Source: Christensenella sp. UBA7588
GTDB lineage: Bacteria; Bacillota; Clostridia; Christensenellales; CAG-917
Length of the DNA: 64,000 bases
Assembly: GCA_002478945.1 (NCBI GenBank)
Contig: DLKM01000028.1
Location: forward strand, 57,136 to 121,135
Direction of reading: 5' to 3'
Shown here: positions 7,141 to 47,423 of the stretch, piece by piece
Layout: each line of letters opens with the position of its first letter
How positions within the stretch are numbered: position 1 is the first letter of the stretch
The notes under the pieces: generated by a model
What the model was told of the DNA's origin: nothing
Database searches by the model: none
The model's input: only the letters and a program-made list of their open reading frames with translations
Made by a program: the position numbers and the translations under genes

Positions 7141-8529
7141 ATGGTTATGTTGGAACTCGAAGGGAAAACTGTACATTTTATCGGTGTCGGCGGCATATCG
7201 TGCAATGCTTTGGCTCGATTCGTTTTGGATTTCGGCGGAAAAGTCAGCGGCAGCGACGCAAAAATCACGCCGATTTGCAACGAATTGCGACGACTCGGCG
7301 CAACTATTTATCAAGGGGAAAATCCGAATAACGTAAATGCGGATATTGTGGTGTTTTCCACAGCGATAAAACGCGATAATGCCGAACTGCAAAAAGCAAG
7401 AGAACTCGGAGTGCCTATATACGAGCGGCACGAGTTTTTGGGAGAAATTTCAAAACTGTTCGGCGCAAGCGTCGCCGTTGCGGGAACGCACGGAAAAACA
7501 AGCACGACGGCAATGCTCACGCATATTTTGAAAAAGCGGAATTTTCCGTTTTTGTCAATGATAGGCGGAGAGTGTGTAAGTTTGGGCAACTACGTCAATA
7601 ATACTTGCGTACATAAAATATCCGAATTGAAGGATTGCGTTTTTATAGCGGAGGCTTGCGAATATAAGCGGCATATGTTGTCAGTAAAATCGGATGTCGG
7701 AGTAGTGACGAACGTCGAGTGCGACCATCCCGATTGTTACGCCGATATTACGGAAGTGCGAGACGCTTTCCGAACGTTCCTCGAGAAAAGCAAAGTTAAA
7801 ATCGCGTCTTGCGAAGATATGCAAAATCTGTTTGGAATCGCGGATAAAAATTCAAACGAATTTTGCGTGACGGACGGAGAAAAAAAGTTCGCGTTTAGAC
7901 TTCGCGACAAAAATTGCGAGGTATATGAAAACGGAATTTACCGCACGAGTTTTTCGCTTATCGACGACGGAGAGTACAATTACAAAAACGCATTGTTTGC
8001 GCTTTGCGCGTCGTCGATTCTCGGAGTTCCGCTCAAAGACGGCGCGTCTGCGCTAAAGAGTTATAAAGGCGTAAAACGCAGATTTGAAAGAAGCGCGGAT
8101 ATAGACAACGCAAAAGTGTTTTTCGATTTTGCGCATCATCCCAAAGAGATAAGTTGCGTGCTTGAAAGAGCGAAAAAATACGGCAAAGTCCTGATTGTTT
8201 TTCAGCCTCATACCTATTCGCGCACCAAGGCGTATCTTGACGATTTCGTTCAAGTCTTGGGCGGATGCGACTTTTGCGACGACGTGGTTTTGATGCCCGT
8301 GTACGCCGCAAGAGAAACGCCTTCGACGGGCGTAGACAGCGACGTTTTGGCAAAGGCAATTTTCGACAAATTTCCACAAAAGAAAGTTTATCTTGCAAAA
8401 GACGCACGCTCAACGCTCGATTATGTAAAATCGCACGCAAAAGACGTCGACGTGATTATGATGATAGGAGCAGGAGATATTTACGATATGAAGCACTTTA
8501 TCGAATGCGAAAAAGACAGACTATCGTAA
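7141..8529 (+). CDS. murC: UDP-N-acetylmuramate--L-alanine ligase
   Basis: HFIGVGGISCNALA N-terminal Rossmann fold and GTHGKTSTTAML P-loop; the Mur ligase body is present throughout. The alternative start ATG 7147 (MLELEGK...) fits the promoter geometry better. Confidence 0.93.
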   Translation: MVMLELEGKTVHFIGVGGISCNALARFVLDFGGKVSGSDAKITPICNELRRLGATIYQGENPNNVNADIVVFSTAIKRDNAELQKARELGVPIYERHEFLGEISKLFGASVAVAGTHGKTSTTAMLTHILKKRNFPFLSMIGGECVSLGNYVNNTCVHKISELKDCVFIAEACEYKRHMLSVKSDVGVVTNVECDHPDCYADITEVRDAFRTFLEKSKVKIASCEDMQNLFGIADKNSNEFCVTDGEKKFAFRLRDKNCEVYENGIYRTSFSLIDDGEYNYKNALFALCASSILGVPLKDGASALKSYKGVKRRFERSADIDNAKVFFDFAHHPKEISCVLERAKKYGKVLIVFQPHTYSRTKAYLDDFVQVLGGCDFCDDVVLMPVYAARETPSTGVDSDVLAKAIFDKFPQKKVYLAKDARSTLDYVKSHAKDVDVIMMIGAGDIYDMKHFIECEKDRLS

Positions 8530-8533
8530 TATT

Positions 8534-8559
8534 TATATATGCGCATTTGCACATATATA
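8534..8559. repeat. 26-bp palindrome (palindrome B), related in its centre to palindrome A
   Basis: TATATATGCGCA TT TGCACATATATA has 12 pairing positions with one mismatch. The centre GCGCATTTGCAC compares with GTGCATTTGCGC at 6531-6542. Confidence 0.6.
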
Positions 8560-8575
8560 GATATGTAAATAGGCA

Positions 8576-8614
8576 CAAAAACAAATACGAGGATACCTCG
8601 TATTTATTTTTTTG
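8576..8614. terminator. bidirectional rho-independent terminator (murC / DUF4363 gene)
   Basis: Stem AAATACGAGG (8583-8592) pairs with CCTCGTATTT (8596-8605). There is an A-run upstream and a T-run downstream. Confidence 0.8.
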
Positions 8615-8645
8615 CATTTGAGAAACGAATCCGTAGCGAATAGTG

Positions 8646-9023
8646 TCAGATTATGTCCTCTGCGTTGAAATCGAGCAACTGTCTTATGTTTTTGCCCATC
8701 ACTATCAGCGAGTGACATTTTGATAAAGCGTTTTGATAATCTCCGCATCGGAGCGAACCCTCCGTCTCTCCGAGAGCCACCGAAAACGCTCTTACGTCGG
8801 GAGAATAGGCAAAAAGTTCTATATACATTCTTCGCTTTTCCCACCATTGCGAGAGGTCTTTTAGCTTAATCAACGCGTCGTCGCTCTGCATTGTTATCGA
8901 TTGCTCGAGGTCTTTCAAATCCTCGTCGAGTTTGTCGAAAGTGCGGTTGATATAATAGTTTTCAAGCACTCCGCCCGTAATAATCAATACGAGTACGATA
9001 ACCGCAAAAACCACTCTTTTCAT
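8646..9023 (-). CDS. DUF4363 family protein (N-terminal membrane anchor)
   Basis: 125 aa with an N-terminal TM helix and a helical body. It sits in the conserved pairing downstream of a DUF421 gene, with a 4-nt overlap. Confidence 0.6.
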   Translation of the reverse strand: MKRVVFAVIVLVLIITGGVLENYYINRTFDKLDEDLKDLEQSITMQSDDALIKLKDLSQWWEKRRMYIELFAYSPDVRAFSVALGETEGSLRCGDYQNALSKCHSLIVMGKNIRQLLDFNAEDII

Positions 9024-9760
9024 CTTACTTCCTCTTTGAGCGTCACTTGCGGATTGTTGGTGGAAGGCGTAAGAGACGTCGAAATATAATCTTCTTTGTA
9101 CGGTTGTATGAACACGTCGTCTCCCGCGACGAGCGCAACGAGTACGTTTTGCTGTTTTACGTTGAGATTTGAAAGAAGTTTAAGCATTTTTTCTTTTGTT
9201 TCTCCGTCGAGTTTGGACAGATTTTCAGCGACAAATTCGCCCTCCACGATTATCGCAACGGGGATTTGCGCTTCGTCGACGTTCATATTTACGTCATCGG
9301 GGCATAGCGGACGATTTTGCGCTTTCGGCATAACGCTCAGGTTGCCGTTCGTTTCTAGAATTGCGTATTCGACCTCGCTCGGATTGAAATAACCTGCGCC
9401 TCGCAACGCTTCCATAACGTCGTCGACGTTGAGATTGAGTTCTTTCATTATATCGGGCAGGATGTTGCCTTTTTCGATGATGATAATCGGTTTTCCGTTG
9501 AGAAATTTGCGGAATTTGATGCTTTTCGTCGCAAGTTTCGTGATGAGAATATGCACCAAAAACAGCGAAAATACGGGAATGACTCCGTACAAAATCGGAA
9601 TAGACGCGTCTGCCATAGGAATGCATACGAGGTCGCTTGCGACAAGCGTTATTGCAAGTTCGAAAGGTTGCAATTCGCCGAGTTGTCGCTTGCCCATCAA
9701 TCGCATTGCCACAAGCAGTACGAAATACAATACGAGACTTCTTATAAACAAATTCAGCAT
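9020..9760 (-). CDS. DUF421 (YetF/YrbG-like) membrane protein
   Basis: LVLYFVLLVAMRLMGKRQLGELQPFELAITLV is the typical DUF421 N-terminus. The C-terminal domain is soluble. Confidence 0.8.
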   Translation of the reverse strand: MLNLFIRSLVLYFVLLVAMRLMGKRQLGELQPFELAITLVASDLVCIPMADASIPILYGVIPVFSLFLVHILITKLATKSIKFRKFLNGKPIIIIEKGNILPDIMKELNLNVDDVMEALRGAGYFNPSEVEYAILETNGNLSVMPKAQNRPLCPDDVNMNVDEAQIPVAIIVEGEFVAENLSKLDGETKEKMLKLLSNLNVKQQNVLVALVAGDDVFIQPYKEDYISTSLTPSTNNPQVTLKEEVR

Positions 9761-9793
9761 AGCCGTAGTGTGTTTATAAGGTATGTTTTTATA

Positions 9794-11473
9794 CTACGCC
9801 GTCAGTTTTTGCTCCTTGCGGCCTGTTCGAGTGCCGTAATCGTGCTTTTTGCGGCGTTTTGACGAGCTTTTTCGCCTATCTTCGAGCGTTGCTTCGGGCG
9901 TGGAAGTCGCGGCGTTACGGCGTGATTTTGCGGTGTGTTTCGCGTGACGTTCGGACGGCTTTTTATTATGCTTGCACGCCGTGTCTACGTTGGGCTTTAA
10001 CATCTTTATACAAGCGGCAATATCTACGATTTTGAAAGCGTTGACAATCAAAAAGAAAAAGAAAACGACGTATACGCCCACAACTATTACCGTCGTTATA
10101 TGTCCTGCGTAAGTCCTTAAAAGTCTTGCCGAGAAAAACGCCGAAACCGATAGCAAAACGCTTGAAAAAACCATCGGAGCGGTCTTTTTGAGATTGAGGA
10201 AAGAGCCGACTTCTTTTTTGAGGACGACTAAATTGCACATCGATACGATGCAGAAACAAAGTCCCGTTGCAACGGCCATAGAGTAGACTCCGATAACTTT
10301 TGGCAAGAAGAATATGCAAGGAAGCATCGAAAGCGCGCCGATTATAGTAAAAATCAGAGTGTAGCGTTCTTTTCCGAGGGAGTTTACCATAGGCGTTGTC
10401 GCTTGCGCCGTTGCTATCGGGAAAATGATAAGCGAACAGTATGACACGAATCTGCCTGCCTGTTCGTCGGCAAAAAGAAGTTTGCCGAGACTTTGACCGA
10501 GCGGCATATATAAGGCAAAAAAGAAACTTGCGATAACCACCGCAAACAGCAGCGACGAGGATAATTTGGCTCTTACGGCCTCAATATCGTTTTGTTTACG
10601 CAGTTGCGCGACGTCGGGCGTGAGAACCACCGAAAGCGCGCTGACAAAGGTTACGGGCGCCATAATCAAAGGCAGAGCCATACCTGCCACTCGTCCGTAT
10701 TCTGCGGTGGCTTGCGCGACGCTCATTCCCGACGATACGAGGAGTTGCGGAATTACCAAAGCCGTCAGAGACGCGCCGAGCGACGATATAATACGAGTTG
10801 CAGACAGCGGTATCGTGCGCATCGTCAAATCTTTGAAGCCGCTCGGCTTGCTTATGCGCCCTCCTGCGACGAAATACAGAACGGCGAGAATAATCACGCA
10901 GGTTGCGTCTGAAATGGTAAATGCAAGCGCGATGCCGTTTGCGCCGACTAAGGTCGATATGATTCCGCTTGCAAAAATCATAGAAAGCACGATTCGCACC
11001 GCTTCGTCTATCAGTTCCGTGGACGAAAACGCCAAAAACTTTTTTCTGCCCCAAAACCAACTGCGTAACGAAGCGTAAATCGTCGACGTTATAAGCGACG
11101 GCAACATTATGAAGAATATCGGCAAGCATTGCGGATTTGAAAAGAGGGGAGAGAGTTTGTCCCCGAGCGCGTAAAATACGGCGCAGATAACGGACGATAG
11201 CAAAACGCCGAGTATCAGCGACGCGGTTGTGAGGGAGTTTTGTTTTTTTATTCCGCCGTTTACCGTCGCTTCGGCAACTTTGCGTGACAATACGACGGGC
11301 GCGCCTGCCGTTATAGTGATAAGCATCAAAAGCACGCTGAGGGCAATCTGATACTGTCCGACGACTTCCGCTCCGAGCGCGCGAGACATCCACATCTTGA
11401 ATACGAAAGAAATCAGCCTCGTCACGATTGAAAAACCCGTTACTATGGTAAACGATTTTGCCGTGTTATTCAT
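9794..11473 (-). CDS. MOP-superfamily oligosaccharide/lipid-II flippase (SpoVB / MurJ-like polysaccharide biosynthesis protein)
   Basis: About 14 predicted TM segments with a KMWMSRALGAEVVGQYQ N-terminal motif. I place the start at ATG 11473 (MNNTAKSF) rather than the upstream ORF limit at 11575. The C-terminal tail is unusually basic. Confidence 0.8.
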   Translation of the reverse strand: MNNTAKSFTIVTGFSIVTRLISFVFKMWMSRALGAEVVGQYQIALSVLLMLITITAGAPVVLSRKVAEATVNGGIKKQNSLTTASLILGVLLSSVICAVFYALGDKLSPLFSNPQCLPIFFIMLPSLITSTIYASLRSWFWGRKKFLAFSSTELIDEAVRIVLSMIFASGIISTLVGANGIALAFTISDATCVIILAVLYFVAGGRISKPSGFKDLTMRTIPLSATRIISSLGASLTALVIPQLLVSSGMSVAQATAEYGRVAGMALPLIMAPVTFVSALSVVLTPDVAQLRKQNDIEAVRAKLSSSLLFAVVIASFFFALYMPLGQSLGKLLFADEQAGRFVSYCSLIIFPIATAQATTPMVNSLGKERYTLIFTIIGALSMLPCIFFLPKVIGVYSMAVATGLCFCIVSMCNLVVLKKEVGSFLNLKKTAPMVFSSVLLSVSAFFSARLLRTYAGHITTVIVVGVYVVFFFFLIVNAFKIVDIAACIKMLKPNVDTACKHNKKPSERHAKHTAKSRRNAATSTPEATLEDRRKSSSKRRKKHDYGTRTGRKEQKLTA

Positions 11474-11602
11474 ATATGGAGTATATGATAATAGATAATT
11501 AAAAATTAGTAATAATAATTGCGGAGGCGTTGCCGTTTGCAAATCTTGAGCAAAAAAAAGCACTTGCGGTTGCAAGTGCTTTTTCGTTAAGGTTTGGGTT
11601 GA

Positions 11603-14600
11603 TTATTCTTTGTTGTCGTCGTATTTGTCGCGCTTTGCATCGAGGGAAGGAGTTTCAATCGGAGTTGCGACTTTCTTTTCTTTCTTCTTCGCAATCGGCT
11701 TTCTGACCTTGCGTACGACGTACACGATAACTACGATGATGATGAGCAGTCCGAGAACGATTGTCGGAATCATCCACCACAATGCTTCGGTGTTGAACGT
11801 ACGAGACGGGGTGGTGTTGTTGTCATCGTTGTTGTTGTCGTCATCGTCTGCGGTACCTTTGTTTTCTGACGTTACGGTACGTTTCTTGACGGTTTCGCTT
11901 GCCGTTGCATTGTCAAAATCTTGTTCGGTTACTTTCTTAATCGTAACGTCGTCGAACATTGCGTAACCGTTGGTAAGTCCAGTTACTACGTCTTCGCCGT
12001 CAACCACGTTCGAAATGTATTTTCCGAGCGAGAGCTTGAGGGATACAGACGTGACGTCCTCGTTGAGAGTTTTGACATAGAACTTGTATTCGGTAAATGC
12101 GTCTGCACGAACCGCTTCGAATATGAACGGATTGTCGACTTCGTTGGAAGAACCGAGGTAAAGTTCGATATAAGCGCCTGCTTTTTCGTCGGTATTGAGG
12201 CCGTACGTTCTTACGAATACGCTGACTTCGTAGTAGCTTTGCTCTTTCATCGTTACGGAGGAGCCGGAGTAAGTGTACGCGCTCTTTTCCATATTGTTGA
12301 TTACGAGCATTTGGTTGCCGCTGTGAGCGTAAAGTTCGTTGACGGGAATCCAGTTTTCGGCTTGCAATTTCGCAAGTTTTGCCTTTTGAATTGCTTCGAC
12401 GACCGCTTCTTTATCGGGGAGGTCTTTATATTCGTCTTTGTCTTTTTCTTCCTCGTACTCTTTGTCGGAGACTTTGATGTCTTCGAGTTTGTAATCGTCG
12501 CCGAGGATGCCGACGTATTCGACGTTGTTACCGTCTTTGTCTTTGACGGTCTTTACTTCGTAGTAACCGCCTGCGACGTAGATGATGCCGCTCTTGGTGT
12601 TGCTCGAGCTTTGGTTTGTACCCGTCGTTCCCGTCCAACCGTTGGGAGTGGAGAGAGAACCTCTGGATTCAACCGAGCTGGAAAGTGCGTCGAAACTGTC
12701 CGTAAGGAAGGAGAGTTTGTGAACGTTGTTGCTCTCGACTGCTTCGTTGTAGTCGGATTCGTCGATAGAAGTGTAATATACGTTATCGAAGAATACGTTG
12801 CCCTTGGATGCTGCTTTTTGAGCCTTGATGGCTTTTTTGATTACGTTTGCGTCGGTGTTCTCGTCGTAATCGGGATTTGCTGCTCTTTCCGCTTCGATTT
12901 CGGCATCGGTAACTTCGATGTCGGTGTAGTCAACGTTATCGCCGAGCCACAAGTTGAGCTTGGTGGAGACGCTTGCCTGACCTACTTCGATGTAGAACGT
13001 GTATTTTGTCCATTCGGTGCCGTTGCCCGTAATCGTGAAGGAGCTTACGCCTGCCGTGAGTGAAGATTCGCCGGAGAGATAGATGTTCGCTTTGGTTTCG
13101 CCGACAGTCTTTGCGTACACGGAGATTCTGTAGTAAGTGTTGGACGAGAGCGTAACGCTCGAGGATGCAAATCCTACCGCATAGCCCTTGGACGACGCGC
13201 TGTTGTTGCCTATTGCAAGAACGTGACCTTTCTTGCCGGGGAGTGAACCGAGGACTTCCGCAGAGGTTGTCTTGTCGACCGACGGATAGAATCCGTTGAA
13301 GTCGATAGTGTTAGCGAATGCGGCGTTTGCCTGATTGCTTGCCGTGAAGGAGAGACCGTCCGTCGTGTTGAACTTGATAACGCCTGCCACGAGGTTGGAA
13401 TCGGCGGTGTTTGCGCCGAGTTTGTTGTCGCTGATAGTCCAATCGCTCGGAGTTGCCGCAACGTTTTGGTCCTCGAGACCTTTGCCTTCTTCGAGGTTTT
13501 TGTCGTCAAGGTCGTAGCTGTCGAAGCTGCCGTTCTTGAATGCGTAAGACAAGCTGGAAGAAAGGTCGATTGCCTTGCTGTAAGTGCCTGTAGACGTCGA
13601 GGAGTAAGTGGAGTGAGATACTTCCGAACCGTTTATGTTGGTAACGAACAAGGAGCCTTTTGCAAGCGTGGACGCCGTCCAACGAGTGCCTGTGCCGAGA
13701 GCGAACTTGAACGCGATGTCAACATTTCTGTCGTTTGCGCCGGTAATGACCACGGTAAGCTCGCACCAGTCGTTTTGATACTTGTCGTAGTCGGTGGTGT
13801 TAATCTTGGAGAACGTTGCCAAAGTGGTGTCGTCCTCGTCTGCTCCGTTCTTTTTGAGAACGTAGACGTATGCGCCGCTGGTGGATTTGACGTCTTGCGT
13901 CTTAATCCACAAGGAAATGCGGTAATATTTGTTCTTCTCAATCGTTATGGTGTTTGTTTCCACTTCGTAGTAACTTTCGGAGGAAGCGTGCATCATATAT
14001 GCGACAGGATTGAGAATTTCATAGGGTTTGTCGGGATAAGTGCCTTTGCCGCCCGTCGTATCGAGGAATCTTTCTTCGTTTTCGATGCTTACGACGCCGT
14101 CGCTGATGATGCCGTCGATAATCGGATTGGTCACTTTAGAGGTGTCGTATTTGCTCGACCAACCGGAGGGAACACCCGAACCGAGGGGTTCCACAACGCC
14201 GTCCATCGAACTCTTGTTGGTATCGGATTCGAGCATATCGGCGAGCATATTAGTCGTGGTAAGGTCAACGACGATGCTCGTCAATGAGTCGTTTCCGGAG
14301 CAGTCGAGAGTTTGGTCTGCATTTGCACCGTCGGTGGGGAATTGGCTGTCCTCGAGTTCGTTGAGGTTAAGTCCGTCGACAAATACCCAACCGGACGAGA
14401 AAGTGCCGTTTGCGTTGTAAACGGTCTTTTTGTTGTATGTGCCGGCAGTATTGCTGTTGGTGCCTTCCGTGCCGAGCCAAATGCTCATATTGTAGCTATA
14501 GTTTTTGAACTGGTTGCCTTTGATATAGAAGGTGTAGGTCGTCCAACCCGTCATACCCTTTCCGGCTACGGTCGGGTCTTGCGGATTTAAGGAAGCGTCG

Positions 14601-38377: not shown

Positions 38378-39862
38378 ATGGAAAAGGATTTTGCAAAAGA
38401 TTCTATCGACAAAAAGCCCGTCGAAGCGGCTTTTTCGCAAAACGAGAGGCTTGTCGACGCATTGATAAAGCACGACGAAAACGGAGTCGTGCCGTTTCAT
38501 ATGCCCGGGCATAAGAGAAAAGATTTCGATTTTCTTTGCGGAGCGTCCAAAATCGACGTTACGGAAATAGACGGCTTTGACAATCTCCACGACGCGTCGG
38601 GAGTGATTGCTCGAGCGGAAAAGAGGGCGGCTCTCCTTTTCGGTACGATAAGCGCTCGATTCTTAATCGGAGGCAGTACGGCGGGCGTGCTTTCCGCAAT
38701 CCGTGCGATGACGAGAGCAAACGACAAAATTCTCGTCGCGCGCAACTGCCATAAATCCGTTTTCAACGCAATAGAGATATGCGGCTTGCGCCCGTGTTAC
38801 GTCGAACCCGATTGTTTTGACGAATACGGCTTTTACGGCTCGGTGTCTCCTCAAAGCGTCAAAGACGCATTCGAAAAAAACGACGATATAAAACTCGTCG
38901 TTGTCACAAGTCCGACTTATGAGGGAATAATCAGCGATATAAAGAGCATTGCGGATATATGTCACGAAAGAGGCGCGTTGCTGTTTGTCGACGAAGCGCA
39001 CGGAGCGCATCTCGGCTTGAGCGATTGCTTCGAACAGAGCGCGCGAAATCTCGGCGCGGACGTGGTTGTGAACAGTTTGCACAAGACTTTGCCGTCGCTC
39101 ACTCAAACGGCGTTGCTTCACGTCTGTTCTCAAAGAGCGGACAGAAAGCGTATCGACGTCAATCTCGCTATGTTTCAATCGAGTTCTCCCTCTTACGTCA
39201 TGATGTCGTCGATTGACGGTTGCGTTGATTATCTTTGCAAGAATAAGGACGTGGCGTTAAAAAAATGGCGCGACGATTTGACGGTTGCCAGAGCCGCGCT
39301 TTCACGGCTCGAAAACGTAAGCCTGTTCGACGGTAAGGACGAGAGAGCGTTCGCTTACGACGAAAGCAAGTTGGTGCTTTGTTTGAACCGATGCGACGAA
39401 AGCGGAGTGGAGTTCAAAAAGGAACTCAGAGAAAAGTATAACGTAGAACTCGAAATGGCAAGCACGGATTACGCCATTGCGATGAGCGGACTCGGAGACG
39501 ACGAAAGCAGTTTCGCAAAACTCGTAAACGCGGTGTCGGCGGCGGACGCGAATTTGAAAAGAAGCGATGAAAAACGCGTTGCAAAATTACCGAAATTGCC
39601 ACAAAAGGTATTTGAACCGTATCAAATAGACGCTTTAAGTTGCGGTTATGTCGATTTTGACGATTGCGTAGGCAAAGTAGCCGCCGAAAATCTATGGGCC
39701 TATCCGCCGGGGTGTCCCGTTCTTGTCAAAGGGGAAGTCGTTGAAAAAGATTTGGTCGAATACGTCAAGTTAGGACTGAAGTGCGGCGTGAACGTGACGA
39801 GCGAAACGAGACTGTTTCCGTCAAAGTTGCTTACGGTGCAAAACAAAGTCGATTTGCCTTGA
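38378..39862 (+). CDS. PLP-dependent Orn/Lys/Arg decarboxylase family protein (YaaO-like)
   Basis: VPFHMPGHKR, GGSTAGVLSAI, VDEAHGAH and SLHKTLPSLTQTA (PLP lysine region). The true start is ATG 38378, inside the longer listed ORF. Confidence 0.82.
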   Translation: MEKDFAKDSIDKKPVEAAFSQNERLVDALIKHDENGVVPFHMPGHKRKDFDFLCGASKIDVTEIDGFDNLHDASGVIARAEKRAALLFGTISARFLIGGSTAGVLSAIRAMTRANDKILVARNCHKSVFNAIEICGLRPCYVEPDCFDEYGFYGSVSPQSVKDAFEKNDDIKLVVVTSPTYEGIISDIKSIADICHERGALLFVDEAHGAHLGLSDCFEQSARNLGADVVVNSLHKTLPSLTQTALLHVCSQRADRKRIDVNLAMFQSSSPSYVMMSSIDGCVDYLCKNKDVALKKWRDDLTVARAALSRLENVSLFDGKDERAFAYDESKLVLCLNRCDESGVEFKKELREKYNVELEMASTDYAIAMSGLGDDESSFAKLVNAVSAADANLKRSDEKRVAKLPKLPQKVFEPYQIDALSCGYVDFDDCVGKVAAENLWAYPPGCPVLVKGEVVEKDLVEYVKLGLKCGVNVTSETRLFPSKLLTVQNKVDLP

Positions 39863-39916: not shown

Positions 39917-40063
39917 ATGAAAAGAATTATAACGTTGAAAACTCGCAATCTGAACGAAAGCAAAAAGAACGGCGGCTGCGGCGAATGCCAAACTTCTTGC
40001 CAATCCGCTTGCAAAACTTCTTGCGGCGTTGCAAACCAAAAGTGCGAAAAAGCCGAAAAATAA
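39917..40063 (+). CDS. scfA: SCIFF (six-cysteine) ribosomally synthesised peptide precursor, 48 aa
   Basis: It is not in the supplied ORF track because it is under 60 aa. The translation is MKRIITLKTRNLNESKKNGGCGECQTSCQSACKTSCGVANQKCEKAEK. The GGCGECQTSCQSACKTSC core is the SCIFF signature. RBS AAGGAG lies at 39903-39908. Confidence 0.92.
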   Translation: MKRIITLKTRNLNESKKNGGCGECQTSCQSACKTSCGVANQKCEKAEK

Positions 40064-40134: not shown

Positions 40135-41511
40135 ATGATACATTCATTCAAACTCAACGGATACAATATAGTGCTCGATACGGCAAGCGGAAGCGTGCAT
40201 AGCGTGGACGACGTCGCATACGACGTTATTAATATGTACGAAAACGCAAGCAAGGAAGAAATCGCGGACGTCGTTACCGCCAAATACGGCGTGACGAGAG
40301 AGGACGTTTTCGAGTGCATCGACGACGTGGAAGAACTTAAAGCGGAAGGGAAACTCTTTTCGGAGGACACGTTCAAGCCCGACGTAAATCTGCTCGCAAA
40401 ACGCAATACCGTGCTTAAAGCGATGTGTTTGCACGTCGCGCATACCTGCAATCTCAACTGCGAGTACTGTTTTGCATCTCAAGGCAAGTATCACGGAGAA
40501 AGAGCGTTGATGTCTTACGAAGTGGGCAAACGCGCGCTCGATTTCCTCGTCGAAAACAGCGGAACGAGGCACAATCTCGAAGTGGACTTTTTCGGCGGAG
40601 AGCCGCTCATGAACTGGCAAGTGGTCAAAGACCTCGTTGCGTACGCGCGTTCTATTGAAAAGGAGCATAACAAGCATTTCCGCTTTACGCTTACCACCAA
40701 CGGAATGCTCGTGGACGACGACGTTATCGAGTTTGCCAACAAAGAGATGGACAACGTCGTGTTGAGTCTTGACGGAAGAAAGGAAATCAACGACCACTTT
40801 AGAAAAACGGCAGGCGGAGTGGGAAGCTATGATATTATAGTGCCGAAATTCCAAAAATTCGTAAAAGCGCGCGGCGGGAAAAACTACTATATGAGAGGCA
40901 CTTTTACGCATCGCAATCCCGATTTTACCAAGGATATTCAAACGATGCTCGACCTCGGTTTCGACGAGTTGAGTATGGAACCCGTGGTGTGTCCGCCCAC
41001 CGACAAGTACGCTCTTGACGAAAACGACAAGAAAATCATTTTCGGAGAATATGAAAAACTTGCCGATATGATGATAAAACGTAGAAAAGCGGGCAAACCG
41101 TTTACTTTCTATCATTATATGCTAAATCTCGAAGGCGGTCCTTGCATTTACAAGCGCATTTCGGGTTGTGGCAGCGGTACGGAGTATCTTGCCGTTACGC
41201 CGAGCGGAGAGTTTTATCCCTGCCACCAGTTTGTCGGTAACAAAGACTATCTTATGGGAGATATTTGGACGGGCGTTACCAACAAAGAAGTGCAGGATAA
41301 GTTTAAGAGATGCAACGCATATTCGCGCAAAGAATGCGAGAATTGTTGGGCAAGATTGTACTGCTCGGGAGGTTGCGCGGCAAACGCATACAACGCGACG
41401 GGAGACGTCAACGGCGTATACGAATACGGTTGCGACCTTTTCAAAAAGCGCATAGAATGCGCGATTATGCTCAAAGTCGACGAGCAGACGGGAGATGTCG
41501 ACGAGGACTGA
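40135..41511 (+). CDS. scfB: SCIFF radical SAM maturase (thioether-forming, SPASM domain)
   Basis: The CNLNCEYCF radical-SAM motif, a C-terminal SPASM Cys cluster (CSGCGSGTEYLAV..CHQF...CENCWARLYCSGGCAANA), and position directly downstream of SCIFF. Confidence 0.92.
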   Translation: MIHSFKLNGYNIVLDTASGSVHSVDDVAYDVINMYENASKEEIADVVTAKYGVTREDVFECIDDVEELKAEGKLFSEDTFKPDVNLLAKRNTVLKAMCLHVAHTCNLNCEYCFASQGKYHGERALMSYEVGKRALDFLVENSGTRHNLEVDFFGGEPLMNWQVVKDLVAYARSIEKEHNKHFRFTLTTNGMLVDDDVIEFANKEMDNVVLSLDGRKEINDHFRKTAGGVGSYDIIVPKFQKFVKARGGKNYYMRGTFTHRNPDFTKDIQTMLDLGFDELSMEPVVCPPTDKYALDENDKKIIFGEYEKLADMMIKRRKAGKPFTFYHYMLNLEGGPCIYKRISGCGSGTEYLAVTPSGEFYPCHQFVGNKDYLMGDIWTGVTNKEVQDKFKRCNAYSRKECENCWARLYCSGGCAANAYNATGDVNGVYEYGCDLFKKRIECAIMLKVDEQTGDVDED

Positions 41512-41512
41512 T

Positions 41513-42010
41513 ATGCCAAAAGACAAGGTTGAAAAGACCAACGCGATGCGCCTTCTCGACGCAAAAAAAGCGGTGTATAAAGAGCATATTTTGCCGATAA
41601 CCGAAGCGGTTAGCGGAGAAGAAGCGGCAATGCTTTTAGGCGTTGACGCGAAGTACGTTTATAAAACGCTCGTAACCGTGGGCAAGAGCCTCGAACACTA
41701 TGTGTTCGTCGTACCAGTTGCGTGTGAACTCGACCTTAAAAAAGCCGCTCAAGCCGTCGGCGAAAAGAATATCGAAATGGTGCGTTCCAAAGACTTGCTT
41801 CCGCTCACGGGATACGTTCACGGCGGTTGCTCGCCGCTCGGTATGAAAAAATTGTTCAAAACGATTATCGACGCAAGTGCAGAAAGCGTGGACAAAATCT
41901 ATTTTTCCGGCGGGAAAATAGGCTATCAGATAGAAACCACGCTTGCGGAACTTAAAAAAGCAATACCTTTCAAACTTGCCGATATTACCGTCGATAAAAT
42001 TGAATGTTGA
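41513..42010 (+). CDS. ybaK: Cys-tRNA(Pro)/Cys-tRNA(Cys) deacylase YbaK
   Basis: KTNAMRLLD N-terminus, KTLV...VFVVPV, and GYVHGGCSPLGMKK. Start at ATG 41513. Confidence 0.85.
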   Translation: MPKDKVEKTNAMRLLDAKKAVYKEHILPITEAVSGEEAAMLLGVDAKYVYKTLVTVGKSLEHYVFVVPVACELDLKKAAQAVGEKNIEMVRSKDLLPLTGYVHGGCSPLGMKKLFKTIIDASAESVDKIYFSGGKIGYQIETTLAELKKAIPFKLADITVDKIEC

Positions 42011-42035
42011 CATATCTTGTTTTATCCCTCATAAT
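42007..42035 (+). promoter_or_regulatory. sigma-A promoter of paralog 1
   Basis: TTGACA (42007-42012), a 17-nt spacer, then CATAAT (42030-42035). Confidence 0.65.
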
Positions 42036-42053
42036 AAAATAAGGAGGGAGCTT

Positions 42054-43598
42054 ATGAAAACGAATATCAAAATGTTAATCTGCACGTTCGTAGCGATTGC
42101 GATGGCAATCCTGTCGGGCGTGTTTATTTTTGTTCCTCAAGGCGTTGCCGCGGCAAATTCCGCTATGCTTTATTTTGAGGGAGTAAACTCTGTAGGCGCA
42201 ATAATCAGAGATGAAGATTGTCCTATCGTCGTAGATAGAGAGGATTTGACTTTCGATATTTACAAAGACGATTTGAGGCGTGATTTTAGGGAAAATTCTC
42301 CCTCGGGCAGAGTCAGCGCAAAATACACGTTCAGAAATCCGACGGATATTACGGCAAAAGTCGGTTTGGTTTTTCCGTTCGGTTACGGTCCCGAGTACGA
42401 GTTCGAGTCTGAAAAAGACCAAAAAAAGTACCATTCCGTCAAAGTGAACGATGAGGAAATCGACAAGAGAATACGCTATACGTATAAGCCGAGAAAAGAG
42501 GAAAACGAAATTCTCCAGTTCGACCTCGGTAAAGACACGCAATTTTTGTCCGACGATTATATCGAAAACGATGTCGCACGGAAAGATACCAAACTTTACA
42601 AATACGTTTGCGATACGAATTACAAAGATACTTCTCAATGGGGCATCAATTTAGTATATACAGGCGAGTATTCGGGAATCATATTGTGCGATTTCACGTC
42701 TACGACGAGCAAAGAAAAGAATCCGGACTATTATGCGGGGTATAAGCGTTGTGCTACCGTCCAGTGTGACAAAGACGGATATGCAACGTTTTATAGTTTT
42801 GAAGAATTGAATACTTCCGACTTTGTTTGTTTGCCGCGTTACGATGCGACCGTAAGCAGATTCGAACTCAAATATGCAGGAGAAACGACGTTTTTTGACC
42901 TTGCCGAGTCGTTATACGACGATGAGAGCGGGATTGAAAAGGTCGACTGGTACAATGCGCTTATGGCAAGATTGTGCTTGTATCAAAGCGACGGATTTGC
43001 CGATTTGTCGTTTGATACAGATTGCAGATTCCGTTGGTACGATTACACGCTCCAATTTGCTCCAAATCAAACCATAGTAAACGAAGTCGTTGCGCCGCTT
43101 TATCCCACAATTAACGCAGAGGTTTCTCCGAACGTTTATAAATACACATATCTTCTTTCTCCAGCAAAGACGTGGGCGAGTTTCGGAGAGTTTCATTTGC
43201 GCATAAACACCGATTTGCAAACTCAAAACGTTTCTGTTGGCGAAATGGAAAGGCAAAACGACTACTACGAGTATACCTGCCAAGGCTTGCCTGACGGAGA
43301 GTTGACGTTTGACATATATGCAATCTCCGCATCCGTACCTAACGATTCGGAATCACAATCGAGAGCGGTTATTGCAGGAATAGCGATTGGCTTGGCGGTC
43401 ATGATAGTGCTGTCGACTTTAATCGTCTTTATCGTCATAGCATCTAAAAAACACAAGGAAAAGAAACTTTTGCAATCGTTCAAAAGTCAAAACCCGCACG
43501 TTGCCACGGAGAGTGAACCGCAAAGCGACGCTTCCGCTCCCATAAAAACAGATGCGGAAGAAGCGGAGAAAGATACTCCTGCCGACAACAATCAATAA
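42054..43598 (+). CDS. type-I membrane-anchored surface protein of unknown function, paralog 1 (514 aa)
   Basis: Signal peptide ..GVAAANS, an ectodomain of about 430 aa, a TM helix AVIAGIAIGLAVMIVLSTLIVFIVIA, and an acidic cytoplasmic tail. RBS AAGGAGGG upstream. Confidence 0.8.
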   Translation: MKTNIKMLICTFVAIAMAILSGVFIFVPQGVAAANSAMLYFEGVNSVGAIIRDEDCPIVVDREDLTFDIYKDDLRRDFRENSPSGRVSAKYTFRNPTDITAKVGLVFPFGYGPEYEFESEKDQKKYHSVKVNDEEIDKRIRYTYKPRKEENEILQFDLGKDTQFLSDDYIENDVARKDTKLYKYVCDTNYKDTSQWGINLVYTGEYSGIILCDFTSTTSKEKNPDYYAGYKRCATVQCDKDGYATFYSFEELNTSDFVCLPRYDATVSRFELKYAGETTFFDLAESLYDDESGIEKVDWYNALMARLCLYQSDGFADLSFDTDCRFRWYDYTLQFAPNQTIVNEVVAPLYPTINAEVSPNVYKYTYLLSPAKTWASFGEFHLRINTDLQTQNVSVGEMERQNDYYEYTCQGLPDGELTFDIYAISASVPNDSESQSRAVIAGIAIGLAVMIVLSTLIVFIVIASKKHKEKKLLQSFKSQNPHVATESEPQSDASAPIKTDAEEAEKDTPADNNQ

Positions 43599-43639
43599 GA
43601 CGACTATTAAACTGTAAAACACGTTTTAATAAAAAGGAA

Positions 43640-43675
43640 GGAGCAAAGCGCATTGCGATTTGCTCCTTTGTTTCA
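43640..43675 (+). terminator. rho-independent terminator of paralog 1
   Basis: GGAGCAAAGCG cattg CGATTTGCTCC (one mismatch) followed by TTTGTTTC. Confidence 0.7.
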
Positions 43676-43711
43676 TAATAAATATAAGTAAACATAGAGT
43701 AAAATTGAAGA

Positions 43712-43740
43712 TTGACATATTTTTTATTATCCCTCATAAT
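43712..43740 (+). promoter_or_regulatory. sigma-A promoter of paralog 2
   Basis: TTGACA (43712-43717), a 17-nt spacer, then CATAAT (43735-43740). Confidence 0.65.
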
Positions 43741-43758
43741 AAAACAAAGAGGGAGCGT

Positions 43759-45393
43759 ATGAAAACGAACATCAAAACGTTAATATGCACGTTCGTAGCG
43801 ATTGCGATGGCAATCCTGTCGGGCGTGTTTATTTTTGTTCCCGAAGGCGTTGCCGAGGCAAATTCCGCGTGGTATAAGTACGACGGCGTAGATGCGGTCG
43901 GCGCAATCGTAAGAGGCGAGAATTGCCCTATCGTCGTGGACAGAGAAGATTTGACTTTTGACATATACAAAGAAGATTTGGGAACTTTTTATGACGAATA
44001 CGAGGTTCCTGCGGGCAAAGTCAGCGCAAAATACACGTTCAGAAATCCGACGGACATTACGGCAAGGGTGGAATTGCTTTTCCCGTTCGGTTATGCGCCC
44101 GAGTACGAGGCGGACGATACGAGAGACAACAAAAAATATTATTCCGTCACGCAAGACGGCGAGGATATTCCCAAACGCATTAGAAATACTTATAGAGACA
44201 GAAGAAACGACAATTACGATATAGCGCAGTTCGACTTTGCAAAAGACACGGAGTATTTATCGGAAGATTATATCGAAAAATACGGTTTTACCAAAGATAC
44301 GAAAGTGTACGAGTACGTTTGCGGTGCGAACGTCTTTGGTAGGACTCAAAAGGCAATAAATATTATCAATAATACGGATTCGCAAATTCTGTGCAAACTG
44401 GAGCATTATCCCGGATTGACCAATAGATACGAAAAGGCCTATTGCGACGAGAACGGAAAGGCGACGTTCTTTTGTTTCGAAAAGCCGAACGAGGGAGATA
44501 TAAGCTGTCGCACATCAGACGACAATAGTATGAAATTGAATTATGAATTCGTAAAAGAAACGACCTTGTTTGAAGCATTGACTTCCGTGCGCCGCGAGGA
44601 CGACGACATCGAGGACGTGGATTTGTTCAATGCGTTTATCGCAAGATACGATGAGGAATATGCGTTTATAAACATCGATTTTGAAAAAGAATACAGATTC
44701 CGCTGGTACGATTATACTCTTGAATTTGCTCCAAATCAGACCATCGTCAACGAGGTAGTTGCGCCGCTTTATCCAAACGTTACGAGAGAATATATTCCGA
44801 AAGTGTATAAGTACACCTACTTGCTTTCTCCTGCAAAGACGTGGGCAAGTTTCGGAGAATTCCATCTGCGCATAAACACCGATATGTACGTCAAAAACGT
44901 GTCCGTCGGCAAAATGAAAAAGCACAAAGGCTATTACGAGTATACCTGCCAAGGCTTACCTGACGGCGAACTCACGTTTGAAATTTGCAAAAGTGCCGCG
45001 CCGATTACGAACAATGCGTGGTGGGGGCTTGTGATAACGGGAATCGCTCTTGCCGTAACGTCGGTAATTTGGATTCCGATACTTGTCCTTATCATTATAA
45101 AAGCGCACAACAAACGCAAAGAAAAGAAATTTTTGCAATCGTACACAGGTCAAAAACCGTTCTATAAAGCCGTGCCGAAAAACGAATTCGATGACGACGA
45201 TAGCTTATTTGACGGCAAATTCGATATTGACGAGCAAATGAGCGAAAATATAGCCGAATCGGCAGAGAATACGCCGAGTGAAGATTCTCAAAACGTAGCC
45301 ACGGAGAGCGAATCGCAAAACGACGCTTCCGCTCCCGTAAAAACAGATGCGAAAGGAGCAGAAACCGATACTCTCGCCGACAACAGTCAATAA
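43759..45393 (+). CDS. type-I membrane-anchored surface protein of unknown function, paralog 2 (544 aa)
   Basis: Same architecture as 42054-43598: a conserved signal peptide, a conserved membrane-proximal block (RFRWYDYTLEFAPNQTIVNEVVAPLYP...YKYTYLLSPAKTWASFGEFHLRINTD), a TM helix and a longer acidic tail. Confidence 0.8.
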   Translation: MKTNIKTLICTFVAIAMAILSGVFIFVPEGVAEANSAWYKYDGVDAVGAIVRGENCPIVVDREDLTFDIYKEDLGTFYDEYEVPAGKVSAKYTFRNPTDITARVELLFPFGYAPEYEADDTRDNKKYYSVTQDGEDIPKRIRNTYRDRRNDNYDIAQFDFAKDTEYLSEDYIEKYGFTKDTKVYEYVCGANVFGRTQKAINIINNTDSQILCKLEHYPGLTNRYEKAYCDENGKATFFCFEKPNEGDISCRTSDDNSMKLNYEFVKETTLFEALTSVRREDDDIEDVDLFNAFIARYDEEYAFINIDFEKEYRFRWYDYTLEFAPNQTIVNEVVAPLYPNVTREYIPKVYKYTYLLSPAKTWASFGEFHLRINTDMYVKNVSVGKMKKHKGYYEYTCQGLPDGELTFEICKSAAPITNNAWWGLVITGIALAVTSVIWIPILVLIIIKAHNKRKEKKFLQSYTGQKPFYKAVPKNEFDDDDSLFDGKFDIDEQMSENIAESAENTPSEDSQNVATESESQNDASAPVKTDAKGAETDTLADNSQ

Positions 45394-45433
45394 AATAGTT
45401 TTGCAACGGTCAAACACATCCTATAAAAACAAA

Positions 45434-45468
45434 GGAGCAAATCGCATTGCGATTTGCTCCGTTCGTTG
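45434..45468 (+). terminator. terminator hairpin of paralog 2
   Basis: GGAGCAAATCGC att GCGATTTGCTCC is a 12-bp perfect stem. The T tract is weak (GTTCGTTG). Confidence 0.6.
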
Positions 45469-45502: not shown

Positions 45503-46132
45503 TCAGTCATCAAAACGTACACGCAATACTTTTGTCGAATATGAAGATTCTTCAACGGGCAAAGTAGCATAAGTATATTGCGATATGTCTATTTCTTTAG
45601 GTTCTTCTTCAATGGTAAAGAAGCGTACTTTGCTTTCATCCACAGGTTTGCCGTATGCTGTGACCGTGAATGTCTGCACCGAAAGAGGTTTGTTTACGTC
45701 GAATATAGGCGCGTCATAAGCAGTTGTAAAATCCGGCTCAAAGATAATTGTTCCGATTTCAGAAGGAACATAATATAGACAATATAAATCAATATTTTCG
45801 TTTAATGCCTCGTTTTCGTTGAACGCTACCGAACATTGATAATCTCTAAAAGGTCCTGAAGCTACAAAAGCCGAGCCGTCCCAACTTCCTCTTTCGTTAT
45901 ATCTATCCATATTAAATTGTTCCGTATTGAAAGTAGTTCCTTTTTTCAATTTATATTGCTTGAAAACTACGCCTGAGCCGTTTTCAATAGGATAGTGATA
46001 TACCAATCTTACCGTAACCGTAATCATATCCGCATCATCATTATTCTTGTCGCAGGCAGAAAGCACCGCAAAAGAGGAAATGAGTAACAGAGTGCAGAGG
46101 ACAATACAAATAATTCTCGATGTGCGTTTCAT
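45503..46132 (-). CDS. lipoprotein of unknown function
   Basis: Signal peptide with lipobox LSAC. The gene is AT-rich and co-oriented 19 nt downstream of the peptidase-like gene. Confidence 0.7.
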   Translation of the reverse strand: MKRTSRIICIVLCTLLLISSFAVLSACDKNNDDADMITVTVRLVYHYPIENGSGVVFKQYKLKKGTTFNTEQFNMDRYNERGSWDGSAFVASGPFRDYQCSVAFNENEALNENIDLYCLYYVPSEIGTIIFEPDFTTAYDAPIFDVNKPLSVQTFTVTAYGKPVDESKVRFFTIEEEPKEIDISQYTYATLPVEESSYSTKVLRVRFDD

Positions 46133-46151
46133 AACATATATCTCCTTATAT

Positions 46152-47423
46152 TTATTCTATGACAGTATATGCAAACGGATACGGCGTCGAGCCTCCGTCA
46201 TAAGGTTTTCTAAAGCCACAGTCTATGCATTGATAGAATCTTTGGCTCGGTTCGACTATAAATCTGTGGCTTTTAACTTCGCTATAATCGCAGTAGCAAG
46301 ACTTGGTATGGCTGTTCAAGCCTTTTGACGTGTATGTATATGTGTGTCTGTGCGTAGCAAGTTTGCAAGAACAAACAGTACTGCCGTCGGAGAGATAATA
46401 GTTGTTTGAATGCGAATGGCGAATAAATTGAAATGAGCCTGCAATATATCCCGTGATATATTGATAATCTATAGTATTACTTGTATAAAAAATATTTGCG
46501 TGATTTACTTCCGAGTCCCAACCGTAATTCGCATACAAAGTATCGTTATCATCGTCATAATCGGAGGCAACAACAGCGTGGTAGGCTTCTTCCCATTCCG
46601 ACGAGGAGTCGCTCCTTGTTTTTCCGTTTATAAACGTTATTACGGGAACGCCTTGTTTTACATAGTCGATAATCTCTCTGCGCATTTTTTCGCTGTATGT
46701 GTAGCTTTCGTTAGGATAATTGTCCTTAAATTGATTGATATGCGACTCATAATGGAAGAAGAAACTGTTTTGAGGGATATTGTTGTTATTCTGTAAGTAC
46801 GAGACCAACAAATTGTATGTTTCGTCGTTTGTTAATCCGAAACTATGGCTAGCTGCTAAGTCAATATAGCCGAGCGTCATTCCTAAATTTAGAAGATATG
46901 AATGAAAATTAGTACCGATGTTTGAGTTCATATAATCTAAGTATTCAAAATCGTTACTTTCGTTTCTTTTATAAATGTCAGGTGCTTCATCGAGAATTCC
47001 CGGAGCATTAGGACAATAATACGAATCGTTATACCTTACCGCCAGTTCCGTTTTGTCATATTGTTCGGGGATGATGTTATCGTTCCAATAAGTGTCGTAA
47101 AATGACAGCCACATCCCGACAGCAACATATGCACAAGAACCGCGCAGATTTTTTCCGTGGTTTTTTAGAGAGCGGAAATACTGTTTAGCAAAGTATGGTA
47201 GTTCAGTCGTTACGTCTGACGACTGCTCCGATAATCCGTACTGTCCCGATTCATTAGCGGCATAACAAGAATGTCCGTCGCAAACGGCGGCATTTTTGCC
47301 TGACTGATAAGACGCGTGCGCAACGTCAAGCGGCTTAATCGTTTTAATGAAAGGGAATGAAACAATCAGTAGCAGTACAAAAACAAGTGAAAACGTTATA
47401 ATTGTTGCAATTTTGGCTTTCAT
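46152..47423 (-). CDS. secreted/anchored putative papain-fold cysteine peptidase (C10/streptopain-like pattern) with C-terminal Cys/His-rich module
   Basis: N-terminal signal anchor, the candidate nucleophile motif RGSCAYVAVGMW, and a candidate His/Asn region YHAVVASDYDDDNDTLYANYGWD (compare C10 HAF..DGY...NWGW). The C-terminus has CSC..H.H...C.C....H...CIDCG. RBS AGGAGG upstream. Confidence 0.5.
   Translation of the reverse strand: MKAKIATIITFSLVFVLLLIVSFPFIKTIKPLDVAHASYQSGKNAAVCDGHSCYAANESGQYGLSEQSSDVTTELPYFAKQYFRSLKNHGKNLRGSCAYVAVGMWLSFYDTYWNDNIIPEQYDKTELAVRYNDSYYCPNAPGILDEAPDIYKRNESNDFEYLDYMNSNIGTNFHSYLLNLGMTLGYIDLAASHSFGLTNDETYNLLVSYLQNNNNIPQNSFFFHYESHINQFKDNYPNESYTYSEKMRREIIDYVKQGVPVITFINGKTRSDSSSEWEEAYHAVVASDYDDDNDTLYANYGWDSEVNHANIFYTSNTIDYQYITGYIAGSFQFIRHSHSNNYYLSDGSTVCSCKLATHRHTYTYTSKGLNSHTKSCYCDYSEVKSHRFIVEPSQRFYQCIDCGFRKPYDGGSTPYPFAYTVIE

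Follow-up and report, generated by a model that had tools for sequence, protein, structure and literature searches.

Two adjacent genes in the genome of an uncultured member of the Clostridia raise the question of why neighbouring paralogues should be almost identical at both ends, closely similar in some internal blocks and widely diverged elsewhere. The genes lie on the plus strand of a 64,000-nucleotide (nt) stretch of contig DLKM01000028.1 (Christensenella sp. UBA7588, assembly GCA_002478945.1), referred to here as the window. The genome is a metagenome-assembled genome (MAG) whose closest relatives are labelled Christensenella or Christensenellaceae. Gene A (42054-43598) encodes a protein of 514 amino acids (aa) and gene B (43759-45393) one of 544 aa, both open reading frames (ORFs) being as stated in the first-pass annotation of the window. 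A is a divergent paralogue whose predicted product combines a signal peptide, a DUF4424-like ectodomain, a C-terminal transmembrane (TM) helix and an acidic tail, and B the counterpart of a gene present as a single copy in related genomes. The first-pass annotation had ascribed the uneven similarity to gene conversion together with diversifying selection on the ectodomain. The explanation that we consider the probable one combines family-wide constraint in the ectodomain with gene conversion of the ends, in a pair of DUF4424-like surface proteins.

The unevenness itself is pronounced. Over their whole length the two proteins share 286 of 497 aligned positions (57.5%), and in windows of 30 residues the amino-acid identity spans 0.24 to 0.93, which confirms the uneven conservation first described and shows divergence along the genes to be strongly non-uniform. 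The near-identity of promoter, ribosome-binding site (RBS) and signal peptide was also borne out: the identical run of 56 nt (42081-42136 = 43786-43841) is exact. Its length lies well outside what chance would give, as 5000 column shuffles of the alignment of the A and B cassettes (62.5% identity) yielded longest identical runs of 14.6 nt on average and of at most 34 nt. All peptide motifs quoted in the annotation, including the membrane-proximal and C-terminal ones, are present in both proteins. A further identical run of 36 nt starts at 42311, inside a conserved N-terminal block of the ectodomain. The truly variable parts are residues ~111-320 together with the linker and the TM segment. The earlier description of the N-terminal and central ectodomain as diverged thus holds for the central part (111-320) and not for residues ~47-110, which form the conserved block. 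The ectodomain measures ~400 aa in A and ~385 aa in B instead of the ~430 aa first given, and the tail of B carries a 44-residue insertion relative to A.

We compared this profile with the variability of the family, for which entropy was calculated from distant members only, A, B and their close clade being excluded. A-B identity follows family entropy closely (Spearman rho -0.87, p = 3e-12, 36 windows), and the identity pattern in the ectodomain tracks family-wide site constraint. The scaffold blocks (~47-110 and 321-425) are under purifying selection, and the middles of A and B differ because the family tolerates change in that region. In A the conserved N-terminal block (residues 47-110) occupies 42192-42383 and is the part from which weak matches to DUF4424 and VIT_2 hidden Markov models (HMMs) arise in family members. 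The membrane-proximal block (residues 321-425; 43014-43328) has the lowest entropy of the whole family, and between A and B it shows a proportion of synonymous differences (pS) of 0.53, a nonsynonymous divergence (dN) of 0.14 and a ratio omega of dN to synonymous divergence (dS) of 0.15. With these values in the most conserved part of the family the block is held by purifying selection and not by gene conversion; B also lies nearer to its orthologues there (83-91%) than to A (77%), and the proposal that it forms a conversion tract had to be dropped. The signal-peptide windows, on the other hand, are outliers above the constraint regression, by +5.8 and +6.8 standard deviations. As a point of method, gene conversion should be called upon only once the similarity of paralogues has been tested against the constraint profile of their family; in the present pair it was needed for the two ends alone.

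At the 5' end the shared tract runs in copy A from 41995 to 42152 and covers, besides the very end of ybaK, the promoter, RBS and codons 1-33 of the signal peptide; its partner in copy B lies at 43700-43857. Within codons 1-33, 15 of the 21 departures from the orthologue consensus are common to A and B, compared with 14 of 144 in the core (Fisher p = 3e-9). The two genes have 15 derived nucleotide states in common within 99 nt, and five orthologues lack them. Neighbour-joining trees place A and B as sisters in 73.5% of bootstrap replicates when built from the signal peptide, in 1.5% when built from the core and in 0% when built from the central hypervariable region (HVR) described below. The promoter is kept in five single-copy orthologues; conserved in all of them, it therefore reflects clade-wide constraint and is not evidence for conversion. 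A remnant of the 3' end of ybaK is retained upstream of B, so the repeated unit starts inside ybaK.

At the 3' end the corresponding module comprises the last 33 codons, the 3' untranslated region (UTR) and the terminator hairpin (43497-43673 in A, 45292-45463 in B). Over the last 105 coding nt and the following 90 nt, A and B agree at 78% of positions. Identity to any orthologue is 41-46% there, a level at which no similarity can be detected; the last ~100 nt and the terminator are common only to A and B. In the tail window pS and its nonsynonymous equivalent pN are 0.16/0.09 between A and B, as against 0.81/0.41 between A and orthologue P0010 and 0.58/0.35 between B and P0010. Over the genes as a whole A-B pS is 0.12 in the signal peptide, 0.16-0.26 in the tail and 0.55 in the core, and synonymous differences fall below the expectation from the core value both in the tail (binomial p = 0.004) and in the signal peptide (2e-5). 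Taken together, these sequence comparisons indicate that both ends were homogenised between A and B by gene conversion after the bodies of the genes had diverged; the conversion of the ends proposed at first is supported by the shared derived sites, the shift in bootstrap values and the identity of the 3' module. Through such conversion both genes would keep the same expression and export signals.

A second array in the family points the same way. Three tandem family copies of 494, 482 and 497 aa lie at 8001-12561 of locus L009, on the same contig as L019, in Christensenellaceae MAG GCA_964480195.1. Identity is 100% between copies 2 and 3 in residues 1-40 and between copies 1 and 2 across 60 core alignment columns; the array is an independent case of conversion within the family. 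A fourth adjacent gene (511 aa) is unrelated to the family.

Sequence searches place A and B as paralogues in a large, unnamed protein family of Bacillota. A search with A returned 395 homologues among 5.8 billion proteins; the 120 matches listed carried no Pfam domain, and the sole source name shown was "hypothetical protein". With a profile as query, 1,589 representatives at 50% identity were reached (E <= 0.001), and 377 loci were located in species-representative genomes of gut and rumen Bacillota. One copy occupies the same slot between ybaK (tRNA_edit) and rex in L006, L008 and the much more distant L012, and tandem copies within 6 kb were found in 2 of 80 species-representative loci, so the duplication is lineage-specific and unusual. 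The arrangement SCIFF-maturase/ybaK/family gene/rex is present in ~20 loci of one clade among 82 loci surveyed.

The two copies differ in how closely they resemble the single-copy genes. The identity of B to orthologues P0003-P0013 is 76-86% in the N-terminal block, 52-74% in the next block, 76-91% in the membrane-proximal block and 71-75% in the linker and TM segment, compared with 71%, 51%, 77% and 31%, respectively, to A. Measured against the consensus of five orthologues, the core has 88 changes found only in A and 28 found only in B, and the linker and TM segment 43 and 5. Core pN is 0.18-0.21 between A and everything else and 0.08-0.12 among B and the orthologues, with core pS about equal (0.55 for A-B, 0.57-0.64 for B and the orthologues). 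These comparisons identify B as the orthologous copy and A as a divergent extra copy. Since core pS is similar and pN of A higher, the duplication would be about as old as the species-level radiation of the clade, with replacement changes accumulating in A at about twice the rate since then.

Between two strains pN/pS is 0.28 in A and 0.09 in B, surrounding genes with known domains showing 0.03-0.22; both genes are under purifying selection, A less strictly. The A/B family gene evolves far faster than its flanks: between this genome and L012 it is 31-33% identical, compared with 93% for rex, 87% for the radical-SAM gene and 82% for ybaK. Hyper-polymorphism of A and B at the strain level was considered and rejected, their nucleotide differences of 2.5% and 2.1% lying within the range of the upstream genes and rex (0.9-2.8%).

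A different history could produce the mosaic. If the tandem duplication were recent and the interior of A (~codons 35-465) had been overwritten by recombination with a diverged allele of another lineage, with crossovers in conserved sequence, it is the ends that would show the true, young age of the pair. This main rival for the history of the locus predicts the same mosaic as conversion of the ends. It would fit a lineage-specific duplication, a gene far more diverged than its flanks and the ybaK remnant upstream of B, such as a true unit duplication leaves; HVR types of orthologues are, moreover, distributed without regard to how far the cores have diverged, which suggests that diverged segments are imported in this family. 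A donor, however, was not found: among 264 family proteins, the best matches of two large protein searches, none exceeded 38% identity to the HVR of A and none resembled its linker and TM segment. Base composition gave no sign of A being foreign relative to B, the GC content of both being the same, and with core pS between A and B not above that between B and the orthologues a foreign origin is not required. We regard replacement of the interior as possible, if rather unlikely.

The HVR comprises residues 181-320 of A (42594-43013), the most variable part of the family, and residues 183-308 of B (44305-44682). In the AlphaFold model of A the region consists of strands and two helices, with mean predicted local distance difference test (pLDDT) values of 62-95 in blocks of 10 residues, mostly >80; it is thus predicted to be folded despite its variability. 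The HVR type of B is nearest to that of P0010 (57% identity).

It is on this region that the full model of the first-pass annotation has to be judged, in which the ends and the membrane-proximal block are converted while an arms race with phages or host immunity exerts positive diversifying selection on the ectodomain. The model is right about homogenised ends, the centre is hypervariable throughout the family, the gene outpaces its neighbours by far, and pN nears pS in comparisons of different HVR types (for example 0.57/0.57, and 0.52/0.66 for P0005 vs P0010), although synonymous saturation between types makes an omega near 1 uninformative. Sliding windows along A and B, however, gave no omega >1, with a maximum of 0.86, and the HVR as a whole has an A-B omega of ~0.26 with dS saturated. 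Among orthologue pairs with core pS of 0.3-0.5, HVR pN is bimodal, being either 0.04-0.09 (omega 0.12-0.18) or ~0.46, which shows the region to exist as discrete old types under within-type purifying selection instead of continuous diversification. Between two strains HVR omega is 0.32 in A and 0.02 in B, and strain polymorphism of neither gene rises above that of the flanks (whole-gene pN/pS 0.28 and 0.09). Diversifying selection on the ectodomain was therefore not supported, and with the membrane-proximal block also explained otherwise (pS 0.53, omega 0.15, B nearer to orthologues) the model as a whole is unlikely to be correct. The types may stem from cassette exchange or from bursts of selection; with synonymous sites saturated between types, either is possible.

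The faster change of A could also mean that it is a redundant duplicate drifting to loss under relaxed constraint, its ends being merely undecayed. Core pN of A is about twice that of B, changes found only in A outnumber those found only in B about 3 to 1, pN/pS between strains is the higher of the two, and A lacks a 44-aa tail stretch found in B and in its long-tailed orthologues, and its TM segment is remodelled. Nevertheless a pN/pS of 0.28 still amounts to clear purifying selection, and ORF, promoter, RBS and terminator are intact in two strains ~2% apart. The family-invariant residues listed are all present in A, its AlphaFold2 (AF2) model is as confident as that of B, and decay alone would leave unexplained a pS of 0.12-0.26 at the ends compared with 0.55 in the core, all of which makes drift of A improbable. 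A history free of recombination, with all conserved segments including the ends kept by functional selection on promoter, export signal and tail motif, agrees with a promoter conserved in all orthologues and with low 5' pS in all pairs but is barely credible, as signal peptide and tail are among the least conserved parts of the family, the 15 derived states in 99 nt are absent from five orthologues, the non-coding 3' UTR is common only to A and B, and tree topology shifts between segments.

We also assessed the architecture of the encoded proteins. Judged on sequence, the N-termini of A and B show a basic n-region and ~20 hydrophobic residues followed by AxA-NS. The A-N-S tripeptide (residues 34-36 of both proteins; 42153-42161 in A, 43858-43866 in B) is the predicted signal-peptidase site and is invariant in 89 aligned family members with a mean identity of 28%. 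This conservation exceeds the need of a cleavage site; the tripeptide is followed by a low-confidence segment (residues 23-46), and copy 2 of the L064 pair lacks A-N-S. The TM helix of A (residues 438-463; 43365-43442), followed by the basic stretch KKHKEKK, is indicated by sequence and by an AF2 helix at 432-477; that of B (residues 421-447; 45019-45099) is of the type kept in orthologues P0003-P0013. The products would accordingly be exported via a cleavable signal peptide and anchored by one C-terminal helix with the basic residues inside, leaving the disordered acidic tail in the cytoplasm. Family proteins are 465-580 aa long, and a TM helix is present near the C-terminus in 88 of the 89 that were aligned. 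An LPXTG-like motif before the TM segment was found neither in A and B nor in the homologues read, and no NCBIfam sorting signal matched.

The tail had been suggested to carry a cytoplasmic docking motif, and this suggestion did not hold. In 60 of the 88 family members with a detectable C-terminal TM helix the tail is <=17 aa long, and the tails of A and B cannot be aligned with those of orthologues; their likeness to each other reflects recent shared ancestry (pS 0.16-0.26) and is no sign of constraint. In the second strain (L013) a 21-nt insertion of 7 codons is present at 45239 in the acidic tail of B, so the tail changes by indels within the species. In the family members P0248 (884 aa) and P0143 (604 aa) the cytoplasmic side is extended, by a zinc ribbon at the C-terminus (E = 3.8e-6) or by a DUF3592 domain, and the intracellular part is therefore modular across the family.

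The ectodomain resembles a known fold. AlphaFold models were obtained with pLDDT 77 and predicted template modelling score (pTM) 0.70 for A and pLDDT 78 and pTM 0.69 for B, and the top Foldseek match of both was 4g2a (E = 6e-7 for A, 5.7e-6 for B, probability 1.00). This structure, a 19-stranded, multi-sheet beta-sandwich, is Legionella pneumophila lpg2210, the representative of DUF4424, for which its authors found the same structural neighbours, no conserved motif or gene context and no known function (PMC3848476). The next matches were ITIH1 (VIT domain; 6fpy/6fpz) and then the N-domains of ERAP1/2, IRAP and LTA4H (E ~1e-3, probability 0.8-1.0). Matches of B to the Ribophorin/Ost1 fold had TM-scores of ~0.13 and were judged to be artefacts of a sandwich joined to a long helix.

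At the sequence level, 35 of 66 family members give sub-threshold HMM matches to DUF4424, aligning residues ~80-145 with profile positions 34-96 in constant register, and 11 of 66 give weak matches to VIT_2. The best member reaches 22.5 bits (E = 7.6e-5), compared with the Pfam gathering threshold of 27 bits for DUF4424 (PF14415). The hunch of a DUF4424-type beta-sandwich thus holds for the predicted fold and fails for Pfam membership: the family is a distant Gram-positive, putatively membrane-anchored relative of DUF4424, not a member by the Pfam criterion. When A and B were scanned against Pfam and NCBIfam, nothing beyond noise from the TM segment came up, no YARHG domain was matched in the family, and sequence searches of the Protein Data Bank with the family profile and with P0113 returned no real match. 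Against BFVD viral folds there were weak matches to giant-virus proteins only and no convincing phage receptor-binding protein; neither A and B nor the pair of genes downstream matched PHROGs or PADLOC at E <= 0.01. Nor did the family turn out to be a known enzyme, an outcome which, like uniform divergence along the genes, the first-pass annotation had named as a refutation.

Like DUF4424 proteins, the family has a putative N-terminal signal peptide and would be secreted, has the N-domains of LTA4H and other M1 aminopeptidases as structural neighbours of its models, which suggest a large multi-sheet beta-sandwich, and lacks a conserved catalytic motif and a conserved gene neighbourhood. It differs in its longer ectodomain (~390-400 aa vs ~300 aa), its hypervariable central region, and a C-terminal TM anchor with cytoplasmic tail, whereas DUF4424 stands alone in proteins of 300-360 aa or is followed by YARHG. 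DUF4424 is found mainly in Proteobacteria and Fusobacteria, in contrast to the Gram-positive gut Bacillota considered here. The VIT domain of ITIH1 and the M1 N-domains belong to the same beta-sandwich fold class by Foldseek and act as binding or auxiliary, non-catalytic modules; by comparison A and B have no vWA or zincin catalytic domain and no significant sequence similarity to them, and are membrane-anchored and stand-alone.

Constraint in the ectodomain plus conversion of the ends would, as a whole, have proceeded as follows. A lineage-specific duplication in the slot between ybaK and rex would have left B ortholog-like while A diverged. Purifying selection would have held the scaffold blocks of the ectodomain, the folded centre (181-320) varying as discrete old types. 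After the bodies had diverged, gene conversion would have copied the ends, that is, promoter and signal peptide on one side and the last ~100 nt, 3' UTR and terminator on the other. Several observations weigh against this explanation. The two-copy array of L064 lacks homogenised ends, so their homogenisation is not a general property of the family. Low 5' pS is found in all orthologue pairs (0.10-0.30), and the case for 5' conversion therefore rests on the shared derived states and not on pS. Core pS is near saturation (0.55), which makes the relative ages of core and HVR uncertain. The proposed topology is read from sequence features, the Foldseek matches to 4g2a have modest TM-scores (0.38-0.48 when normalised to the target), and the DUF4424 HMM does not match A and B even at E <= 10. 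A survey of gene neighbourhoods in 82 loci revealed no recurrent functional partner.

By analogy with M1 N-domains and VIT, the proteins could be surface-displayed, non-catalytic binding or scaffold modules whose exposed central subdomain is free to change; for this we assume the HVR to be exposed and membrane-distal. The benefit of the pair may be that one cell displays two variants with the same expression and export signals. One can go further and imagine the family as a major serotype-like surface determinant of uncultured Clostridia, in which a DUF4424-like scaffold presents an exchangeable central cassette in discrete old types. Phages or host IgA would maintain these types through frequency-dependent selection, recombination would carry them from lineage to lineage, and the pair would display two of them at once. 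We put this forward as a speculation that is doubtful at present.

Comparable arrangements are known from pathogens. M proteins have conserved leader and anchor ends. The M and M-like genes emm, mrp and enn of Streptococcus pyogenes are adjacent surface paralogues with a hypervariable exposed region, recombination between paralogues (emm-enn fusion) and type switching through recombinational replacement (PMC6952200, PMC9993116, PMC6321872). They resemble A and B as neighbouring surface-protein paralogues of discrete types with alike ends and variable middles. In contrast to the beta-sandwich with membrane helix and no LPXTG found here, M proteins are alpha-helical coiled coils with an LPXTG/sortase wall anchor, and their HVR is N-terminal instead of central. 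For M proteins, unlike for the present family, selection by immunity has been documented, and the tandem state is rare here (2/80 loci). In Mycoplasma the vlp, vsa and vsp genes are clustered lipoprotein paralogues with near-identical 5' regions and signal peptides and divergent mature parts, which undergo repeat-based size and phase variation. In A and B, unlike in these, no repeats, invertible elements or homopolymer tracts were seen. Tandem surface paralogues with alike ends and variable middles are thus already known; what is new is the family, its DUF4424-like fold on a membrane anchor and its type-like centre.

Few surface proteins of commensal gut Clostridia (Christensenellales, Oscillospiraceae, Lachnospiraceae) have been characterised, and this family is widespread, unnamed and without Pfam assignment. 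Should its central region truly consist of exchangeable types, it would deserve consideration as a phage receptor or a target of immunity, and also as a marker for typing strains of uncultivated organisms. The DUF4424/VIT fold gains a Gram-positive, membrane-anchored branch.

Regarding expression, the locus reads as two independent transcription units, each with a putative sigma-70-type promoter, Shine-Dalgarno sequence, ORF and intrinsic terminator. The promoters of A (42007-42035) and B (43712-43740) on the plus strand both have the form TTGACA-17 nt-CATAAT, agree with the consensus at 11 of 12 positions and are the top two matches within the region scanned; the -35 hexamer of A overlaps the stop codon of ybaK. 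A Shine-Dalgarno sequence (AAGGAGGG) can be read off at 42041-42048 (+) for A, and its distance to the ATG is 5-6 nt in both genes. The terminator hairpins (A 43633-43673, -21.3 kcal/mol; B 45431-45463, -22.5 kcal/mol) have z ~-6 relative to shuffles. The hairpin of A retains U-rich sequence on the plus strand. That of B has its good U-tract on the minus strand, the plus-strand one being poor, and is likely to serve as terminator for the convergent 209-aa gene downstream as well. The Rfam scan gave sub-threshold matches on the terminator hairpins only and no leader RNA, and a repeat search of the region found no repeat, inversion or homopolymer tract suggestive of phase variation. The tandem pair was recovered on contigs of six separate metagenome assemblies, representing two strains, and is therefore not an assembly artefact.

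Upstream of ybaK, a 48-aa SCIFF peptide gene (MKRIITLKTRNLNESKKNGGCGECQTSCQSACKTSCGVANQKCEKAEK) at 39917-40063 (+) lies directly 5' of a radical-SAM maturase gene (40135-41511), forming the standard SCIFF pair of Clostridia. An Orn/Lys/Arg decarboxylase-like gene (OKR_DC_1) at 38378-39862 (+) is 58-68% identical between related genomes, compared with 82-97% for its neighbours. Two minus-strand genes lie between B and rex: 45503-46132 encodes a 209-aa protein with a lipoprotein-like signal (LSAC), and the 423-aa product of 46152-47423 combines a Peptidase_C39_2 domain (E = 2.3e-10) with a TM helix at its N-terminus. L006, L008 and L012 lack both genes at this place, and a GC content of 37-40% sets the two apart from the sequence nearby (42-50%). 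Of the genes compared between the two strains, the 209-aa gene differs most (7.6% at the nt level, pS 0.18); on these grounds the pair looks like a small inserted islet. Between the family gene and rex, the orthologues in L006, L008, L015, L016 and L017 share a conserved AT-rich palindromic stretch, ATTTTATCAATATATATCGATATA, followed by TTGACAAA upstream of rex; this may represent promoter and operator of rex. The inserted genes take its place in this window.

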